IMG/VR virus record: IMGVR_UViG_2775507102_000001
Location: 274-64,273 of that record
Origin: a virus
Taxonomy: Duplodnaviria > Caudoviricetes
DNA: 64,000 nucleotides
Strand: one strand, 5' to 3'
Below, piece after piece: positions 2,102-63,550 of the stretch. Positions within the stretch are counted from its first letter, which is position 1, and the number at the start of each line of letters is the position of its first letter. The notes under the pieces were generated by a model. That model was not told the DNA's origin, searched no databases, and was given only the letters and a program-made list of their open reading frames with translations. The position numbers were made by a program, and so were the translations under genes.

Positions 2102-3142
2102 TCAGGATCGATTGTCGCGCGGGAGCAGCGGGTTGTTGCGGCGCCGGTCGGCCGGGCGGACGTAGGTGAGCACCTGTGTCGAGTTCTTGCTCCAGCGTCC
2201 GTGCTCGGCAATGAAGGGCACGGGGACGCCGCGCTCCGCGGCATCGGTCGGCGCCCCGGCTCGAAGGCCGTGCGCGGTCATCCGTTCCGCGTCCGTCAGC
2301 TTGGCGTCCTTGGCCAGTCGCTTCACGATCTCGTTCACCGTCTCGCCGGTCATGCCGGCGCCGACGTTGCCCCATACGTCGATACTCCGCAGGAGCCGAC
2401 CCTCTGTAATGCCATGCTCGGCCAGCCCTTCAAGATAGGAGTTCACGATGGCCCGGGCGTCGATGTCCGGCGCGATGGCCCTGGGGATGTCGATGTCTTC
2501 TCCGTGGGCGCTGGTGTCGGTCTTCGACATGGGGATGAAGACGGTTACCCACTCGTCTGCGACCGTCAGCTGGTCGATGGTGACGGAGGCGAGCTCTGAG
2601 CGGCGGCCCATGAGTCCGTATCCCAGAACGAGAATGGTTGCGTCTCGTCGGCCGCTGAGGGAGCCGGTGTCGCACTGGGCCAGTAGGAGGCGCAGTACGT
2701 CGAGGGTCACGGGTTTGGCTCGCCGAGGGCGCCAGCCGTCGCGCGCGCGGTCCTGCCGGTGCACTTTGATCAGGTCTCGGGCGGCCCTGGAGTTGGGTTG
2801 CCCTTCGAAACCTGCACGGAAGTGCGCGGTTCGGACCGCAGAGAGGGCCTGGTCGAGGCTGGCTGGCGAGTACGGCTTGCCGGTCGCCTGGGACGTGGAG
2901 CGCATGAGGTATCCGATGAACTCGGCGATCGTCTCGGCGGTCATCGGCAGCGGAGTGCGCCCCTCTCGCTCGCACCAGGCGAGGGCCATGTTCCACCAGC
3001 GCGCGTAGGCGCGTTCCGTGTTGGCCGCAGTGGCGCGCTTGAGGTCTTCTGCGGTCTCGCCTGAGATGTGGCGGTCCCTGGCAGCTGACGGCTGTGCGGT
3101 CGGGACGAACTCCACTTCCACCGGTTCGAGTTCACTCGCCAA
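2102..3142 (-). CDS. Cre-like tyrosine recombinase
   Basis: 346 aa; TTG start with AAAGGAG RBS; motifs RRDATILVLGY..GRRSEL, KTD, HGLRAG, HGRW, Y in VLTYVR; NTERAYARWW-type N-terminal domain. Confidence 0.9.
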   Translation of the reverse strand: MASELEPVEVEFVPTAQPSAARDRHISGETAEDLKRATAANTERAYARWWNMALAWCEREGRTPLPMTAETIAEFIGYLMRSTSQATGKPYSPASLDQALSAVRTAHFRAGFEGQPNSRAARDLIKVHRQDRARDGWRPRRAKPVTLDVLRLLLAQCDTGSLSGRRDATILVLGYGLMGRRSELASVTIDQLTVADEWVTVFIPMSKTDTSAHGEDIDIPRAIAPDIDARAIVNSYLEGLAEHGITEGRLLRSIDVWGNVGAGMTGETVNEIVKRLAKDAKLTDAERMTAHGLRAGAPTDAAERGVPVPFIAEHGRWSKNSTQVLTYVRPADRRRNNPLLPRDNRS

Positions 3143-30586: not shown

Positions 30587-32638
30587 TCAGTCGGTGCGGA
30601 TGATGTCGGAGACGGGCAGGACTTTGATGCCGCGGGCCGCGATCCCGTCCATGATCGCGTTGAAGTCGGCGAGACTGCACTGGTTCGTGGTCGTCGCCGC
30701 GCCGCTGGTGATCTCGTGGAAGGTCAGCTGGAGCCACGAGCCGGTCGACGCGCACCGGTCGAGCGGCCCACCGGCGGCGAGCATGGTCGACGGGTAGGCG
30801 GGGCTCGCCGCGCCGGCCATCGAGCCGATGCCCGTGATGCTCCGCATCCTGTAGGCCATGCCGGGCGGGACCGTCTCGGCGGCGTTGTCGGCTGAGCTGA
30901 TGCCGCGGCCGGTGCTGAAGTACCGGGCGGTGAGCTGGTCGATCGGGTCGCCGTCGGTGGTGGGCCCGAACCACCCGCCGGGGTAGGCGAAATGCTCCGA
31001 CGGGAAGCCGTTGGCGACCATCCAGGCGCGCAGAATCCGCAGCTCATCCAGCACGGCCTGCGTCGACAGGGTCGTGTACTTGGCGTTGTGCGCGGCGACC
31101 GTCGCGGCGTGCCCGGCGATCTCCCAGCCGCTGAAGTCCTGCATGCTGCGCATCTGCGCCTTGGTCAGGTAGACGCCGCTGGTGTCGACGACGTCAGCGA
31201 TCGTGTAGATCGTGCCGCGGTAGTTGAGCGAGTCCATCTTGGGCCGGGCCAGGGACCAGACCGAGGAGTAGCAGTCGTCGAACGTGATCGACACCGCTCC
31301 GCCGGGGAAGTCCGTCACCGTGCCGTCGATGAGCTCGACGGATTGCAGGTGGACGGTGGCCGCCCCGGTCCCCTTGTCGACGACCTGAAACGCCATGTCG
31401 GTGAAGCCGGACGTCGCCGACGGCACGCCGGTCGGACCGACGGTGTACGTGCCGGTTGGCGACCGGACACCGGACCACTGGAGCGTGACCGTGACCCATT
31501 CGCCGCTCTGCACCTGGTTCTGCGCCGTGGCGGAGTGCGTGAACACCCGCCAGCTGTAGCTGTTCGCGAGGGTGCTGCTGCCGACCAGGAAGTTTATTTG
31601 GTTGATCCTGGAGACGTCCGCCACTCGGAAGACGAGCCGGATCGCCTTGCCGGTCAGATCGAACTGCGGCGCCCCGTAGCGGCGGATGTTCGCGACCGCG
31701 CCTGTGCCCGTGGTGGTCATGGCGAACGACTGCGTGCCCTTCACGAACTGGCTGGTGTCGTTTGCGTTCGACGAGGCGACGCCAGAGCCGGACGTCGACC
31801 ATCCGTGGTTGGCCTGCATCAGCGTCACCGTGCTCGACGCATCCCGCCACGTCGGCCGGGATGTATGCGGCAGCAGCGGCAGCGCGAACCCGGAGGCGGT
31901 GAGCCGGCCGGTGACCTGGGCATTGTTGGTGACGTTCAGGGCGGACAGCCAGGCGGTGCCCTGCTCGATCGCCGAAACCCGGTTGAGGGCGTCGTTGAGG
32001 TAACCGTCGATCGCACTGACCGTGCTCCCCAACGCGAACTTGCTGTCGGCCCAGGAGCGGTCGCCGTGCGGATCCGCAGCGGCCACATGCCCGGCGACGG
32101 CTACTGTGGCCGTCCCCGCCGGGTCGGCGCCGACATCGGCGGCACTGAGCGACACGGTGCCCTGCTCACCGTTGACGGACTGGACCAGGTTCGTAGCCGG
32201 GTCGCCCGGATCACCCTGCGGACCTTCCGGACCTTCGGGGCCAGCCGGTCCAGCAGGCCCGGCGGGGCCTGTCACGACGACGTACTCGCCCTCCGACGGC
32301 GCGGTCGGCGCCACATCGGCCAGGTCGACAGCCGGCGCCGCAGCCGGGAGGGACAGCGGGTAGGAGCGGCCCGGCGTGTCGTACCAGCGTTCCGTCACCC
32401 GGTACGTCCACCCGACCGGTGTCACATCCGGATCGTCCGTGGCCAGCAGGCTGACAGTGAACTGGCCGTTGTTGTCGAGAACGACCTCGACGTCGCCGAT
32501 GACCAGCGTGCCGTGCGCCGCCGAGGTGAGTACCTCAGGCTCCGGGCGGAAGACGAGCCGGCCGCTGTACGGCGTGCCGTTGGGGTGCAGGTAGGTGCCG
32601 GTGACCGTGACGGTGGAGAGTCCGGGAGGCAGGGCCAC
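30587..32638 (-). CDS. Spike protein with N-terminal attachment domain, collagen hinge and C-terminal polysaccharide deacetylase (CE4/NodB)
   Basis: 683 aa; [22 protein letters not shown]; VSITFDD, EIAGH, HFAYPGG, LTFHEI. Confidence 0.82.
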   Translation of the reverse strand: MALPPGLSTVTVTGTYLHPNGTPYSGRLVFRPEPEVLTSAAHGTLVIGDVEVVLDNNGQFTVSLLATDDPDVTPVGWTYRVTERWYDTPGRSYPLSLPAAAPAVDLADVAPTAPSEGEYVVVTGPAGPAGPAGPEGPEGPQGDPGDPATNLVQSVNGEQGTVSLSAADVGADPAGTATVAVAGHVAAADPHGDRSWADSKFALGSTVSAIDGYLNDALNRVSAIEQGTAWLSALNVTNNAQVTGRLTASGFALPLLPHTSRPTWRDASSTVTLMQANHGWSTSGSGVASSNANDTSQFVKGTQSFAMTTTGTGAVANIRRYGAPQFDLTGKAIRLVFRVADVSRINQINFLVGSSTLANSYSWRVFTHSATAQNQVQSGEWVTVTLQWSGVRSPTGTYTVGPTGVPSATSGFTDMAFQVVDKGTGAATVHLQSVELIDGTVTDFPGGAVSITFDDCYSSVWSLARPKMDSLNYRGTIYTIADVVDTSGVYLTKAQMRSMQDFSGWEIAGHAATVAAHNAKYTTLSTQAVLDELRILRAWMVANGFPSEHFAYPGGWFGPTTDGDPIDQLTARYFSTGRGISSADNAAETVPPGMAYRMRSITGIGSMAGAASPAYPSTMLAAGGPLDRCASTGSWLQLTFHEITSGAATTTNQCSLADFNAIMDGIAARGIKVLPVSDIIRTD

Positions 32639-33605: not shown

Positions 33606-33805
33606 GACGCAGCCTTCTCGCGGATGGCGTCGACGAGTCCCAGGTCATCGACTTCGATGACGGTCCCGCAGGTGCGGCAGGTGTATGTGCGGTCGCCGTA
33701 CCTGTCCGTGCCCTCGTCTTTCATTTCCTCGCCGTGGCAGTCGGGTACGCCGTCCTCGATCTCCATGCCGAGGACCAGCTCCATGCCGTAGATCGTCGGT
33801 TCCAT
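33602..33805 (-). CDS. Small acidic Zn-ribbon protein
   Basis: 67 aa; DCHGEEM...YTCRTCG; AAGGAG RBS. Confidence 0.7.
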   Translation of the reverse strand: MEPTIYGMELVLGMEIEDGVPDCHGEEMKDEGTDRYGDRTYTCRTCGTVIEVDDLGLVDAIREKAAS

Positions 33806-33816
33806 TGCGGTCTCCT

Positions 33817-34284
33817 TCACTGCTGATTGTTGGTTTTGGCCCACAGGCCGGTGGTCTTCGTCTGGACGGTGCGCTGGTCGACGTGGCCGGTGTAGTGCTG
33901 GTGGATCTCGGCGGGGGCGGCCTGGCCGGCTCGGCGCAGGAGCCGGGCCAGGGCGAGGATCGGCACGGCGATCGCGGCTGGCGCGGCGCAGATCATGCCA
34001 ATGACGGTCGGGTTGGCGTGCTCAGAGGCGACCATCACGGCGACCGCGATCAGGCCCGGGGGCACGGTGGCGAGGCTGCAGAACATGACGGCCCGGGCGG
34101 TCTCGGTGGTGCGCTGCGACATCGGCGGGATGCCGGGCTGCGGTACGGGCGGGGCGTCTCCGTACCGCGGGAGCGGGGTCTGGTCACGGTAGGAGGTGGC
34201 GAAGTCGGCGATGATCTGGCGCGCCTGCGCTTCAGCCTCGGCGTCGGTCATTCCGGTGCGGGTCGGGTCGGTCTTGGCGGACAT
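33817..34284 (-). CDS. Two-TM membrane protein, Spd (spread)-like
   Basis: 155 aa; two hydrophobic segments; downstream of traB. Confidence 0.7.
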   Translation of the reverse strand: MSAKTDPTRTGMTDAEAEAQARQIIADFATSYRDQTPLPRYGDAPPVPQPGIPPMSQRTTETARAVMFCSLATVPPGLIAVAVMVASEHANPTVIGMICAAPAAIAVPILALARLLRRAGQAAPAEIHQHYTGHVDQRTVQTKTTGLWAKTNNQQ

Positions 34285-34410
34285 GGCGGGCTCCTGCGGG
34301 GTGATCGTTCCGGGTGGTCTGGGGGCTGTTCGGGCCGTCCTGGCCCTCGTCCGGGCCTGTGTTTGTGCTGGTCAGGGTTCGGCGGTGGCCCGTCTGCAGG
34401 GTCGAGGGGC

Positions 34411-34505
34411 CCGTCCCGGCCGGACGGAGTCGCGACGGCCGGGACGGGGGCTGGACGGGGTTCATACCGGGTCAAACCAGGTCAGTGGACGGGGGTTGGA
34501 CGGGG
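34411..34505. repeat. clt-like locus: 8-bp direct repeats GGACGGGG (CCCCGTCC on minus)
   Basis: Exact copies at 34442, 34453, 34487, 34498 (two pairs at 11-bp spacing), 1-mismatch copy at 34422; 11-bp inverted repeat 34411-34421/34437-34447; ends 2 nt from traB stop. Confidence 0.75.
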
Positions 34506-34506
34506 C

Positions 34507-36609
34507 TCACAGGCCGATGTCGTAGCGGTCGAGGACCGCCCGGCGCACCGCGGTGAGCGGGTAGACGGACACCTTGCTGCCGCTGACTTCCTGCCGCCGC
34601 TTCTCCTCGTCGGTGCGCGGCACGAGCACGGCCAGCCGGTCGGCAGTCACCGGATGGCCGGCTGCGGCAAGCCCTTCGGTGACCCGGGCAGTGGGCAGCA
34701 TCTCGACGCCTTCCGGGTACAGGCCGAACAGGGTGGCGAGGATCTCGCCGTCCTCACCTGCGGCGCGCAGCCGGTCAAGCGGGCCCAGCGGCAGCGTCCC
34801 GGCCTCCTGTCGCAGCGAGTAGGCGCGGCCCAGGATTGCGGCGACCTCGTCGTCGTCGTAGTAGTCGCCGCGGACCAGCTCCGGCTCGGCGCCTTCGCCG
34901 TCCATGTAGATGCCCACGCCGCGCTGCGACTTGAGGATGTCCTGGGCGTTGTGCCCGGCGGAGGCGTAGCCCTGTCCGAGGATCGTGTCGGAGGCCTGCG
35001 GGGTGAGGCAGCGCATCGCCCAGCGGATGGAGAGGATGTCGCGGATCCCGGTGGGTACGGAATCGCTGTCGGGCTTCTGTGTGGCGGCGAGGCTGATGAT
35101 GCCGAGCGCCCGGCCCTGCTGGACGATCAGCCGCAGCAGCCGTTCCATCTCCTGCCGTGTCTTCTGGTCGGCGGCGGCACCGTAGGACGACCACTCGTCG
35201 ACGAGGAGAACGGCCAAGCAGACCCGCGGGTCGACGGCGGCCATCGCCTCGGTCAGCTTGCGGGAGCCGTGCTCCTTGGCGAGCGCCCGCCGCTCCTTGA
35301 TCTCGACGTCCCACATGTACTGCAGGATGTCGAGGAGCTTGTCGGGGTCGCCGTCGGTGTCGTACATGGTGGCGATCGGCTCGAACGGGGTGATGTCGGC
35401 GCCGGCCTTGCCGTCGGCGAGGTACATGCGCACGGTCGGGTCGAGCGCGGCGGCGAGCAGCAGGTCGTTGGCTGCGGCGGACTTGCCGGAGCCGGGCTCG
35501 CCACCGAAGAGTCCGGACCGCTCGACCCACGAGGTGATGACTTCCTCGCCGCGCAGGTTGACGCCCATCCGGATGGGCTGCCACAGGTTGACCCGCTCGG
35601 CGTCGAGCAGCGGGCCCCGGGTCGGCTTGGTGGAGAACGGCAGCTTCAGCGACACCCGCAGGTGGATGGTGTCTTCGCGGTCGCCGCGGGTCTGGTGGAC
35701 CTGCTGCACGGACACGCCGAAGCCGTTGGCGATGCCCTCGCGCGCTCCGAGCGCCTTCTTAGCGGGGGTGCCAGACGGCAGCTGGAACACGACCTGCCAG
35801 GCCTTGCCGTCGGCGGTGAGCGTGCAGGGGGTGCTGAGGCGCAGGGTGTCGTCGGCGGCGATGACGCGGGCGTCGCGGTACACCCGGTTGACCATGTCGT
35901 CGGTCATCCGGTCCCCGTCGCCGATCTTCGCGTCGCGGTCGGTGTACAGCTCCCCCGCCGTGGTGCGCCGCCCGATCAGGGCGAACGTGGCCAGGGTTGC
36001 GGCCGTGGCGGCGAGCCCGCCGGGGGTGCCGAGCAGTTGCAGGCTCGCTCCTTCAACTCCGGCGATCGGAGTGAGGGCAGCAACGCCCCGCACGGCCCGC
36101 CGCATGCGGGCGTCCCGCTGCGCCGACCGGTACTTGCTCATCGCCGACGCCGAGTCGGCGAACGCGCCCTCCATCTCCCGGCGCCGCTTCTCCTTCTCCT
36201 TGCCGGGCATCAGCCGCCGGTCGTGCGCCCACTTCGCAGCCTTGTAATCGCGCTGCGTCTGCTGCACCTCGTACCGGGCGGCGAGGACCTGCGCGCCCTC
36301 GGTGCCCTGCACCCACAGGACGGTGCGGCGGATCCCGCGACCGATCTGCGAGGCGTGCCCGTGCTCTGTGGCCTGCCGACGCAGCCACTTGCGGAAGCCG
36401 CGGACGGTGTTGACGCGGCCGACCTCGGCGCGGCTCTTCCACCCGGTGCGGGTCTTCGTCCAGGCGGGGGTGAGGGGGGTGTCGCCCATCAGGTCGACGG
36501 ACGTCGTCTGCTTCTCGACGGGCGCCTCGCCGGGGGCGTTCAGGTAGCCGCCGACGATGCGCTCCCACTCCGGGTCGGGGGTGCTGCTGGGGGTCGTCTC
36601 GATGCTCAC
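34507..36609 (-). CDS. traB: TraB-like FtsK/SpoIIIE conjugative DNA translocase
   Basis: 700 aa; N-terminal TM region, Walker A GEPGSGKS, Walker B LLVDEW, GRALGI...ATQKP, C-terminal wHTH-sized domain. Confidence 0.88.
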   Translation of the reverse strand: MSIETTPSSTPDPEWERIVGGYLNAPGEAPVEKQTTSVDLMGDTPLTPAWTKTRTGWKSRAEVGRVNTVRGFRKWLRRQATEHGHASQIGRGIRRTVLWVQGTEGAQVLAARYEVQQTQRDYKAAKWAHDRRLMPGKEKEKRRREMEGAFADSASAMSKYRSAQRDARMRRAVRGVAALTPIAGVEGASLQLLGTPGGLAATAATLATFALIGRRTTAGELYTDRDAKIGDGDRMTDDMVNRVYRDARVIAADDTLRLSTPCTLTADGKAWQVVFQLPSGTPAKKALGAREGIANGFGVSVQQVHQTRGDREDTIHLRVSLKLPFSTKPTRGPLLDAERVNLWQPIRMGVNLRGEEVITSWVERSGLFGGEPGSGKSAAANDLLLAAALDPTVRMYLADGKAGADITPFEPIATMYDTDGDPDKLLDILQYMWDVEIKERRALAKEHGSRKLTEAMAAVDPRVCLAVLLVDEWSSYGAAADQKTRQEMERLLRLIVQQGRALGIISLAATQKPDSDSVPTGIRDILSIRWAMRCLTPQASDTILGQGYASAGHNAQDILKSQRGVGIYMDGEGAEPELVRGDYYDDDEVAAILGRAYSLRQEAGTLPLGPLDRLRAAGEDGEILATLFGLYPEGVEMLPTARVTEGLAAAGHPVTADRLAVLVPRTDEEKRRQEVSGSKVSVYPLTAVRRAVLDRYDIGL

Positions 36610-37850
36610 TGCGACTCCTTCTTCGCGGCGGTCTGCTTGGCGGTGATGGCGGCCTGACGACGGGCGGCGGGGGCGTACTTCACGTCACCCTTGGTGCGCT
36701 TTCCGCGGCGGGCGGGAGGGTTGTAGACGCGGGGCTTCTTCGCGCCGGGCACTTGCGATGCGACCTGCTGCGATGATCCGTTCACGGAGCGCTTCTGCCG
36801 GGCGGCTTCGACCCTCGCTTCGGCGGCGTTGCGCAGTCGGATAATCTCCGCGGACTCCGACGGGTCGGCACCCTCCACGTCTCGGTGCGCGCGCTTCCAG
36901 ACCGCCTCGGTGACGGTCGTCTCGCCGAGCGCTGCGGCGAGCCGCAGTGCGTGCTGCCACACCTTCGGGAACTCCTTGGCGCGGGCCTGCGCGAGCTTCT
37001 CCGCGGCCTCGGCCGCGGCACGCTCGGCGGCCTCCTTGTCGGCAGCCCGTCGCTTCTCCTCCGCGGCCTGGCGGGCGGCCTCGGCTCGCTCGGCTTTCGC
37101 CTGGGCCTTGCGCTGCTTGCGGGTGAGCGCGCCGTCGCGCTTGCGGATCTGCCCGTGCTCGTGGAGGTCATACACGCCGGGACCGGCGATGGACGCGAAC
37201 GCGGTGCCGATCGCGGTGGCCGGGTCGAAGGCGTGCAGCCCGTGCCACAGGTTGATCGCTGCCGCGATGAAGGCCAGCACCCAAGCGATTAGCCGGTAGT
37301 GCCAGTGCGGGCGACGGTCGACTGCCGCAGCCCGGGCGCCCTTGAGGACGACCCACGCACCGCCTTCGAGCATGATCGGCGCGGCCATCAGCCACAGGGC
37401 GTTCGGGTTGTAGAACGCGGCAATCTGCACGGGCAGAGCGACGATTGAGCAGACGGCGTAGAAGCGCAGCGCGTACTGGCGCCACTGCTCCTCGGCGGCA
37501 GCGACCTCTGCGGCCTTCGCGGCTTCGGCCTTCTCCTCGGCGGCAGCCTTCTCCTCGGCCTCCCGGGCGGCGCGCTCCTCCTCGTCGCGCTCCCGGTTGA
37601 GCTTGGCGATGCGGGCCGCGCGGGCGGCCTGCTCCTCAAGGGCCCGGGCCTCGGCCTTGTCGTTGGCGATCCTCTGCTTGCGGGCTTCCTCAGCGGCCTT
37701 GATCTTCTCGGCCTCAGCCTCACCTTCGGCCTTGATGCGGGCGGCTTCTGCTTCGGCGGCGGCGCGGGTCCGGATCGCCTCCGCCTCGGCCAGCGCGACC
37801 GGGTCAAAGCGGTCCTGGCCGTTGACCATTTCGAACGACGTGGCGGTCAC
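36606..37850 (-). CDS. Coiled-coil multi-TM transfer/spread protein (SpdB2/DUF2637-like)
   Basis: 414 aa; Ala/Glu coiled coil, about 4 TM segments, second coiled coil; stop overlaps traB start. Confidence 0.75.
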   Translation of the reverse strand: MTATSFEMVNGQDRFDPVALAEAEAIRTRAAAEAEAARIKAEGEAEAEKIKAAEEARKQRIANDKAEARALEEQAARAARIAKLNRERDEEERAAREAEEKAAAEEKAEAAKAAEVAAAEEQWRQYALRFYAVCSIVALPVQIAAFYNPNALWLMAAPIMLEGGAWVVLKGARAAAVDRRPHWHYRLIAWVLAFIAAAINLWHGLHAFDPATAIGTAFASIAGPGVYDLHEHGQIRKRDGALTRKQRKAQAKAERAEAARQAAEEKRRAADKEAAERAAAEAAEKLAQARAKEFPKVWQHALRLAAALGETTVTEAVWKRAHRDVEGADPSESAEIIRLRNAAEARVEAARQKRSVNGSSQQVASQVPGAKKPRVYNPPARRGKRTKGDVKYAPAARRQAAITAKQTAAKKESQ

Positions 37851-41284: not shown

Positions 41285-42040
41285 TCAGGCGGGGAAGTCG
41301 TACACCAGTAGGAACCTGGAAGCGTCCAGAATCATTCGGTTGATCTCGACGACACGACCATCTGCACGCATCGCAGAGCGGTGCTGCTCTACAACGGGCG
41401 CGCCGGCCGCCAGGTGCAGGTCATCCACTTCCGCCGGGGTAGCCAGTCGACACCGCAGCTGCTCACGGAACTGCACCGGCCCGTGCCCCGCTTCGCGGAG
41501 TCGCGCATAGGTTCCACCCGGGCCGGAGTCGATCTGTGTGATGCGCGTGCCGCGCGCGAGGTCGTCCGGGATGTACGAGGTCGCGCGCATGACGACTTCC
41601 CCTTCGACGACGTAGCGCCGATTCCGCCGCCACACCGGCTCGCCCTCTTCCAGATCGAGGGCGCGGGCCACTTCCGCCGGGGCGTCGATCAGTTCAATCT
41701 GCACGTCACGTGCCTCAAGCTGACGGTCATCGATGTCGACGTCCCACATCGATCGCCCTTCGCCCCACTGAGCGGTCGAGAGCCGCTTGAGGGCGTTACG
41801 AACGATGGGCCGCCATTCGGCGACGTACCAGCCGGAGCCGACGCGCGACTCGATCAGGCCCTCGTCGCGCAGCACGCCAAGGGCCTGGCGAACGGTCATC
41901 TGCGAGACGTCGTAGAGCGCGCGCAGATCCCGCTCGGAGGGCAACTTTCGCTTCTCGCCGAACTCGCCGGCATTGATCCGCCTACGCAGGTCGTCGGCGA
42001 TCTCCCGGTACTTGTGCGGCTCGCCGGGCTTGCGTGGCAC
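41285..42040 (-). CDS. GntR-family repressor with UTRA domain (KorSA/TraR-like)
   Basis: 251 aa; YREIADDLRRRI..G.....KLPSERDL...VSQMTVRQAL..L..EGLI; C-terminal UTRA-like fold. Confidence 0.9.
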   Translation of the reverse strand: MPRKPGEPHKYREIADDLRRRINAGEFGEKRKLPSERDLRALYDVSQMTVRQALGVLRDEGLIESRVGSGWYVAEWRPIVRNALKRLSTAQWGEGRSMWDVDIDDRQLEARDVQIELIDAPAEVARALDLEEGEPVWRRNRRYVVEGEVVMRATSYIPDDLARGTRITQIDSGPGGTYARLREAGHGPVQFREQLRCRLATPAEVDDLHLAAGAPVVEQHRSAMRADGRVVEINRMILDASRFLLVYDFPA

Positions 42041-62189: not shown

Positions 62190-62414
62190 TCAGGCGGCGG
62201 CGCGGGCCGGCTTGTCGTCGGCGGTTTCGCCGTTGAGCCAGGCGTCGAGGTCGCTGACCTTGTAGGCGTAGCGGCGGAGCCCGTGGCGCTTGCCCTTCGG
62301 GCCGACTCCTTCACTGCGCCACCGGTAGAGGGTGACGACGTGGACGCCGAGGTAGTCGGCGGCGTCGGCGCTCCAGAGCCATCCCTTCGGCGGAGGCTTG
62401 GGCTTGTTCGGCAT
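62190..62414 (-). CDS. AlpA/excisionase-like HTH protein
   Basis: 74 aa; WLWSADAADYLGVHVVTLYRWRSEGVGP...YKVSDLDAWL. Confidence 0.85.
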   Translation of the reverse strand: MPNKPKPPPKGWLWSADAADYLGVHVVTLYRWRSEGVGPKGKRHGLRRYAYKVSDLDAWLNGETADDKPARAAA

Positions 62415-62418
62415 CGGT

Positions 62419-62715
62419 CTATTCCTTACCTGTGGGGGTGGATGATCGAGACGTTCGTTTCTGATCTGGAGACGACGGAGGCGCGAAAAGGGGCCATATG
62501 GCACTACCGACGGCCTCCGCGAGGGCTGTCGCGTCATCGACGTCCGCGTTGTCCTGCCTGCCGGTCAGGAGCTTCTCTATGACTCCCTGGCTGACTCCGG
62601 ACTCTTCGGCCAGGGAACGGACCGAGAAGGGTTGCCCTCGACCCGGAAACTCCATGTAGTGCTTGAAGATCAGGATGCTGCGCAGGGTCCAGCGCCTGCT
62701 TGCACGTCGGCTCAC
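62419..62715 (-). CDS. Cro-like XRE HTH protein
   Basis: FSVRSLAEESGVSQGVIEKLLTG; first gene of leftward early operon. Confidence 0.8.
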   Translation of the reverse strand: MSRRASRRWTLRSILIFKHYMEFPGRGQPFSVRSLAEESGVSQGVIEKLLTGRQDNADVDDATALAEAVGSAIWPLFAPPSSPDQKRTSRSSTPTGKE

Positions 62716-63390: not shown

Positions 63391-63550
63391 CACCGGACCC
63401 CGAAGCGGCGGCGGCACGTGACTGAAAAAGTCCCTAAGTAGACATTCATCAGAACGGATTGTCGCCGTCTGCTCACCGGACGTACCCTTCCACAACCGTG
63501 TGCCCCCGGCACACGGTTGCCCAAGTGCAACGCACCAACGGGAGGGCGCC

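Follow-up and report, generated by a model that had tools for sequence, protein, structure and literature searches.

An 8-bp repeat array behind traB in a Streptomyces prophage is the probable clt of the adjacent TraB translocase

The window analysed here, a stretch of 64,000 nucleotides of tailed-phage DNA, contains a cluster of 8-bp direct repeats placed immediately after a traB gene. This raises the question of what such repeats are for in a phage, and in particular whether it is the neighbouring TraB that reads them. Judged from sequence comparison, it is likely that the array is the clt of the adjacent TraB and that its recognition word is CCCCGTCC (traB sense). The layout is known from Streptomyces plasmids; here it occurs inside an integrated phage, very probably as a new member of the pSVH1 kind of clt. 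The analysis also provides a concrete, testable candidate word for a TraB that has hitherto not been studied.

On the plus strand an exact search of the window places GGACGGGG at 34442, 34453, 34487 and 34498, the four positions that an earlier note on this DNA had listed. The copies form two pairs with a start-to-start distance of 11 bp within each pair, in agreement with the phasing of about one helical turn described there, and 45 bp between the pairs. Each pair belongs to a 23-nt unit that is duplicated 45 bp apart. Read in the sense of traB (minus strand), the repeats are numbered outwards from the gene. TRS1 (34498–34505, -), an exact CCCCGTCC, starts 1 nt past the stop codon, so that the immediate adjacency claimed previously stands, although the distance is not 2 nt: a single base (34506) precedes the TCA at 34507–34509 of the plus strand. 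TRS2 (34487–34494, -) is again CCCCGTCC and lies 11 bp from TRS1. TRS3 (34453–34460, -) and TRS4 (34442–34449, -), both CCCCGTCC, form the second pair with the same 11-bp step; TRS3 shows the lowest conservation among the repeat positions in relatives, and TRS4 supplies the 5' arm of a hairpin. These four sites are defined by exact search and conservation, with hairpin analysis in addition for TRS4. Between the pairs, alignments reveal two central tandem 10-mers, ACCTGGTTTG and ACCCGGTATG in the traB sense (34463–34482, -). TRS5 (34422–34429, -) is the one-mismatch copy already noticed at 34422; it reads GGACGGAG on the plus strand and CTCCGTCC in the traB sense, and was assigned by mismatch search and conservation, its CCGTCC being invariant across 8 aligned loci.

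Beyond the direct repeats a mismatch-tolerant search finds inverted copies. The first of these, GCCCGTCC at 34409–34416 (+, one mismatch), is also conserved and forms the 3' arm of the hairpin in the traB sense. Three more degenerate copies follow between 34333 and 34395 (+), identified by mismatch search and alignment: GCCCGTCT at 34388–34395 (two mismatches), CCTCGTCC at 34345–34352 (one) and GGCCGTCC at 34333–34340 (two), the GACGG cores of which are kept in relatives. The array had been delimited at 34411–34505, and it does lie there, but with the inverted copies reaching 34333 the feature fills the entire 222-bp gap at 34285–34506. This gap has the highest density in the window of octamer copies with at most one mismatch; besides five direct and about four inverted copies it contains the conserved central tandem 10-mer. 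From this density, and from its alignment with the pSVH1 clt and related loci, the complete intergenic region (34285–34506, -) is proposed as the clt. Repeat search and folding also show that the inverted repeat reported here as 11 bp is real and longer, a perfect 13-mer (34410–34422 and 34436–34448) with a 13-nt loop. This structure, spanning 34410–34448 with no strand assigned, might be a terminator that lacks a U-tract, or a cruciform.

The octamer itself is not a rare sequence. It occurs 9 times in the window against 9.1 expected, and 1228 times in the 8.79-Mb host genome (71% GC) against 1228 expected under a maximal-order Markov model, with a strand distribution of 628 to 600. Its arrangement is a different matter, as the array after traB is the sole 4-copy GGACGGGG cluster in the genome, and its two pairs are the sole exact 11-bp-phased GGACGGGG pairs. 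Any 8-mer occurring at least four times within 70 bp is found at just 58 genome loci, and the spacings there are mostly divisible by 3, which marks them as coding repeats. Chance is thus ruled out for the cluster and not for the word. The comparison with background that the earlier note had proposed as a refutation test gives a divided answer: locally the cluster is unique, whereas genome-wide the octamer density is exactly that of background. The runner-up cluster, with three copies on contig C308, was set aside as an unrelated Pro/Gly-rich coding repeat. The 8-mer search also returned other arrays that look noncoding, at C107:14537, C174:24464, C72:15974 and C350:330996, with spacings such as 41, 10, 10 or 40, 13, 9. 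The host genome yielded no further TraB homologue at E≤0.001, so these may be iterons or other protein-binding arrays.

A guide sequence of the KOPS type is a dispersed, over-represented word with strand skew. Such a reading of the octamer was dropped, as was the idea of many chromosomal clt-like clusters in this host: the octamer has no genome-wide enrichment and no strong strand skew, the large contigs included. The word here forms one cluster instead of being scattered. An analogy can still be drawn with the FtsK gamma/KOPS system, in which an FtsK-family motor with a C-terminal tail of the winged-helix type reads an 8-bp word (PMC4447253). The pSVH1 word, by comparison, forms 25 chromosomal clusters of four in S. 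coelicolor (PMC5133688), whereas the host here contains no further 4-copy cluster.

The gene before the array (34507–36609, -) encodes, on Pfam and homology evidence, a 700-aa double-stranded DNA translocase of the FtsK/SpoIIIE type (FtsK_SpoIIIE, PF01580) with a C-terminal winged-helix-like tail. Its naming as traB proved correct, the product being 41% identical to pSVH1 TraB over 681 aa (E=5e-139) in an alignment that reaches the last residues. It also matches further Streptomyces plasmid TraBs and, strongly, PHROG family phrog_1358, while its motor region matches solved FtsK structures and carries the Walker A sequence GGEPGSGKS at residue 370. As a possible N-terminal membrane anchor the protein shows only a moderately hydrophobic stretch at about residues 175–213 (Kyte–Doolittle mean 1.26). 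Against four relatives dN/dS is 0.14–0.41 for the whole gene and 0.09–0.27 for the motor; traB is under purifying selection, and is full-length and selectively maintained. The AF2 model of the last 115 aa (pLDDT 86.6) consists of helices and a β-hairpin. Its best fold matches in VIA-align are winged-helix domains at weak scores (Z 5.0–5.5), namely those of Rex, TFIIIC, RAP30, Zur, IclR, PadR and MCM8; the FtsK gamma domain is absent among these matches, and Foldseek returned nothing from the PDB at E≤0.001. The model is therefore consistent with a winged helix, but weakly so.

Upstream of traB, a gene for an SpdB2-like membrane protein (36606–37850, -), 32% identical to pSVH1 SpdB2 over 214 aa (E=4e-14), has a stop codon that overlaps the traB start, and a GntR/UTRA regulator (41285–42040, -; Pfam GntR and UTRA) belongs to the same family as the regulator beside the pSVH1 transfer genes. 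On the other side of the array lies a 155-aa gene (33817–34284, -; phrog_19266, E=1.6e-37), a conserved neighbour of traB in relatives, with tblastn matches downstream of traB in L003, L005 and L032–L034; its product has no similarity to that of the pSVH1 gene downstream of clt. In one relative, L042, traB and the CCCCGTCC array are kept, and the 10 kb upstream contain no called GntR/UTRA gene.

The closest described counterpart of the array is the clt of pSVH1, the 8-bp repeats of which are recognised by the TraB winged-helix tail according to published accounts (PMC4447253, PMC3583192, PMC5133688). Both elements share the gene order GntR, small genes, spdB2, traB and then a repeat-bearing gap of about 220 bp. 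In both, 8-bp direct repeats begin within 1–4 nt of the traB stop (4 nt for the GACCCGGA copies of pSVH1), the first pair is 11 bp apart, a central element of the CCNGGWTTG type follows, and the distal end carries inverted copies, one being noted for pSVH1. A MAFFT alignment places the gap in register with the pSVH1 clt and with nine other loci of the pSVH1 class (class A), and the elements that fall in register are the first repeat pair, the central CCNGGTTTG/NCCNGGTATG element, the later repeats and the inverted copy. The words in this alignment vary by locus, with all copies of one locus, direct and inverted, changing together. By this alignment, the array and the pSVH1 clt are homologous in position. 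The differences lie in the details and in the carrier. The word is CCCCGTCC here and GACCCGGA in pSVH1, the TraB tails are only 45% identical, and the putative recognition and wing stretch reads RRQEV...VSVYP as against AKRPW...VTGYP in pSVH1. The array is more compact than the pSVH1 clt, and is carried by an integrated prophage of about 67 kb, whereas pSVH1 is a 12.6-kb rolling-circle plasmid.

Other systems can be compared by description. The clts of pWTY27 (which uses TraA) and pJV1 consist of short direct and inverted repeats that are bound by Tra, essential for transfer and situated next to tra (PMC3583192). The array here likewise combines short direct and inverted repeats beside the tra gene, with a unit of 8 bp rather than the 7 bp (TGACACC/CCCGCCC) of pWTY27 or the 9 bp of pJV1. 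The pWTY27 clt extends 16 bp into traA, whereas the present array begins past the traB stop.

Repeats adjoin the 3' end of traB in the window, in pSVH1 and in most of 33 homologous loci. An 8-mer present at least three times in the 200 nt past the stop occurs at 20 of 33 TraB loci and in 4 of 256 coding windows (Fisher p=1.5e-18), and an identical 7-mer pair 10–12 nt apart at 17 of 33 and in 11 of 256, respectively. Even the offsets recur, being 0, 11, 45, 56 and 76 here and 4, 15, 48, 69 and 90 in L008. A search with TraB residues 600–700 returned 23 proteins of about 700 aa with tails 68–91% identical. The footprint set was formed from 8 loci that share this C-terminal domain, the window and the contigs of seven relatives (L037–L043). 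TRS1, TRS2, TRS4, TRS5 and the first inverted copy all retain CCGTCC across the 8 aligned gaps, and the spacers have diverged, for which there was time given a traB dS of 0.25–0.44. Core columns show 88% pairwise identity, compared with 62% elsewhere, a value that none of 5000 permutations reaches; the test is slightly biased, since the cores were defined from the window's own sequence. Across 32 sites in the 8 loci, positions 1–8 read C C C C G T C C with 72–100% conservation and the flanks are mixed. Eight informative positions with unconserved flanks support the unit of 8 bp and the word CCCCGTCC, both of which had been suggested from the single locus.

In the central 10-mers GGTTTG is invariant in the 8 aligned loci, and an element of this type is present in most clts of the pSVH1 class and, in class-B loci, right after the stop, irrespective of the 8-bp word. 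It could represent a bend or a second binding site.

The word changes with the TraB tail. TraB tails fall into two classes, and the window TraB combines a class-B-like motor (82% identical to that of L032) with a tail of the pSVH1 class. The word CCTGGACA is common to L032 and L005, whose motors are 34% and tails 71% identical, and likewise to L003 and L005 (motor 33%, tail 70%). Words differ between L033 and L034, which have near-identical motors (92%) and tails of 54% identity, and between L003 and L034 (motor 87%, tail 48%). Identity of the downstream ORF, in comparison, is 38–50% among CCTGGACA loci and 51% between loci with different words. In these comparisons the word tracks the last 70 residues of TraB and not the motor domain or the downstream gene, so that tail and array behave as a single exchangeable cassette. 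Of the computational arguments for TraB, and against a neighbour, as the reader of the repeats, this co-variation is the strongest. The loci collected here also yield a set of matched tail–word pairs, with the words CCCCGTCC, CCTGGACA, GGGTGCAT, CCCTGTGT, CCCTGTCC, CCCGTRCA, CCCTGGAC and GACCCGGA, from which one could derive the code by which TraB winged-helix tails read DNA.

The position of the array between two genes on one strand invites readings that concern their expression. It lies upstream of the 155-aa gene, which has GGAG as its ribosome-binding site, and several small proteins without an assigned function are encoded nearby, so that the repeats could be operators at which the GntR repressor, the 155-aa protein or an Spd-type protein controls the genes past traB. 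Similarity between downstream ORFs is no guide to the repeat word, however, L042 retains the array in spite of the missing GntR call, and the word is non-palindromic, direct and helically phased, like the TraB-bound repeats of pSVH1 (PMC4447253, PMC3583192). Operator function is thus regarded as improbable. Still more so is the view that the region serves the traB operon merely as a transcription terminator or a 3' UTR structure, with the repeats as by-products of the hairpin arms. The perfect 13-bp stem does exist and belongs to the transcript's minimum-free-energy fold; it is conserved in the 8 loci, and in 4 of its 13 pairs both bases have changed with pairing preserved. Yet on the traB strand the stem lacks a following U-tract, a scan of that strand found no terminator-like site, the fold of the whole gap is unexceptional (z = -1.68), and the covariation term amounts to just -0.19 kcal/mol, the core pairs being invariant. 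TRS1, TRS2, TRS3 and the central 10-mers are conserved although they lie outside the hairpin, and a hairpin fails to explain why the word tracks the TraB tail. What the distal copies do form is a conserved hairpin with few compensatory changes, so that termination of transcription may account for some of the conservation.

The nature of the carrier suggests yet another use. Iterons are typically short, phased direct repeats, and in a phage such repeats could belong to prophage replication or to a packaging site. A matching architecture after traB is seen, however, in small plasmids such as pSVH1, which carry no phage genes; in the window the distance from the array is about 9 kb to the terminase genes and about 13 kb to the DnaB-type helicase, and relatives with two different head and packaging modules retain a matching array beside traB. 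An iteron or packaging role therefore appears scarcely credible.

If the array is the clt of TraB, as preferred here, its function may be pictured by analogy with work on pSVH1 (cited in PMC4447253, PMC3583192 and PMC5133688). The docking site would comprise the direct copies, five in number and including two pairs spaced by one helical turn, together with the inverted copies (about four) and the central 10-mer. A membrane-bound TraB hexamer would bind the repeats through its winged-helix tails, load double-stranded DNA into its central channel and then, driven by ATP, pump it into a neighbouring hypha or compartment. The distal hairpin formed by TRS4 and the inverted copy may in addition end traB transcription. 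With the module in the middle of a prophage, the likely substrate would be the excised or replicating phage genome.

Perfect 91-bp direct repeats at window positions -1670 to -1580 (L035:4330–4420) and 65462–65552 (L036:1562–1652) bracket about 67.2 kb, and are probably the attL and attR of a prophage. The right repeat lies within the 3' end of a 732-aa Peptidase_C39_2 gene, and just inside it are genes for a 432-aa tyrosine integrase (L036:125–1423, starting near window position 63481) and an Xis-like HTH_17 protein (62190–62537). Flanking repeats together with an integrase and an Xis-like gene at the right end place the traB module in the middle of a prophage of about 67 kb. Over most of the window all genes are on the minus strand, including those for the tape measure, tail, major head, large terminase and portal proteins; the early genes (DnaB-type helicase, methylases and nuclease) are on the opposite side of the traB module. 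In L033, a related prophage whose terminase is 96% identical, traB occupies the matching slot but has a different tail and word. Among seven contigs with the same TraB tail, five carry terminase or portal genes within 10 kb, with two head types represented, and the remaining two extend only to Gp80-like genes. The prophage around the module appears to be complete, and terminase or portal genes also adjoin at least five of the relatives that share this tail.

In the literature consulted, a search on TraB in Streptomyces prophages gave nothing relevant, and the sole published precedent found there for the spread of a phage as naked double-stranded DNA is the plasmid-phage pZL12/phiZL12 (Zhong et al., 2010), as cited in PMC3583192 and PMC4487206. 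According to those sources it is a Streptomyces phage genome with a conjugation-essential tra, maintained as a plasmid by ParAB, and its transfer requires tra and two adjacent genes. On that description both elements are Streptomyces phage genomes carrying a tra gene, and they differ in that pZL12 is plasmid-maintained whereas the element here is integrated, with a tyrosine integrase and 91-bp repeats. A tblastn search with TraB against 50,697 phage records gave no matches at E≤1e-5, which despite the match to phrog_1358 suggests that its relatives are borne by prophages or plasmids and not by isolated phages.

The prophage setting makes the array a cis element with which to ask whether phages also spread as naked double-stranded DNA. 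It is tentatively proposed, with somewhat less than even confidence, that a whole family of integrated Streptomyces tailed prophages uses these repeats as a handle for capsid-free movement of the phage genome between hyphae or compartments; that tail and word are swapped as a cassette among phages and plasmids, generating private transfer-specificity groups; and that NCCNGGTWTG, present twice, is a second and hitherto undescribed docking element common to clts with different words.

Some further observations concern the surroundings of the array. The sequence CTGACCAGC..AAAC (traB sense, 34361–34379), between the inverted copies and the start of the 155-aa gene, is conserved in all 8 aligned gaps and may be a promoter or other site; a promoter scan of 33700–34700 found no sigma-70-like promoter, and Rfam gave nothing near threshold in 34100–34700. 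The 683-aa protein encoded at 30587–32638 (-), with a collagen-like stretch and a polysaccharide deacetylase domain, is without a counterpart in the otherwise syntenic L033. In L037–L043 and L033 a near-identical traB module stands beside two head and packaging sets, the SPP1-portal/Terminase_7 set, as in the window, and a Phage_portal/Peptidase_S78/Phage_capsid set, which points to mosaic exchange among Streptomyces temperate phages. Finally, a second gene of the integrase family (346 aa, Phage_integrase) is present within the prophage at 2102–3142 (-), about 3.8 kb from the left repeat.
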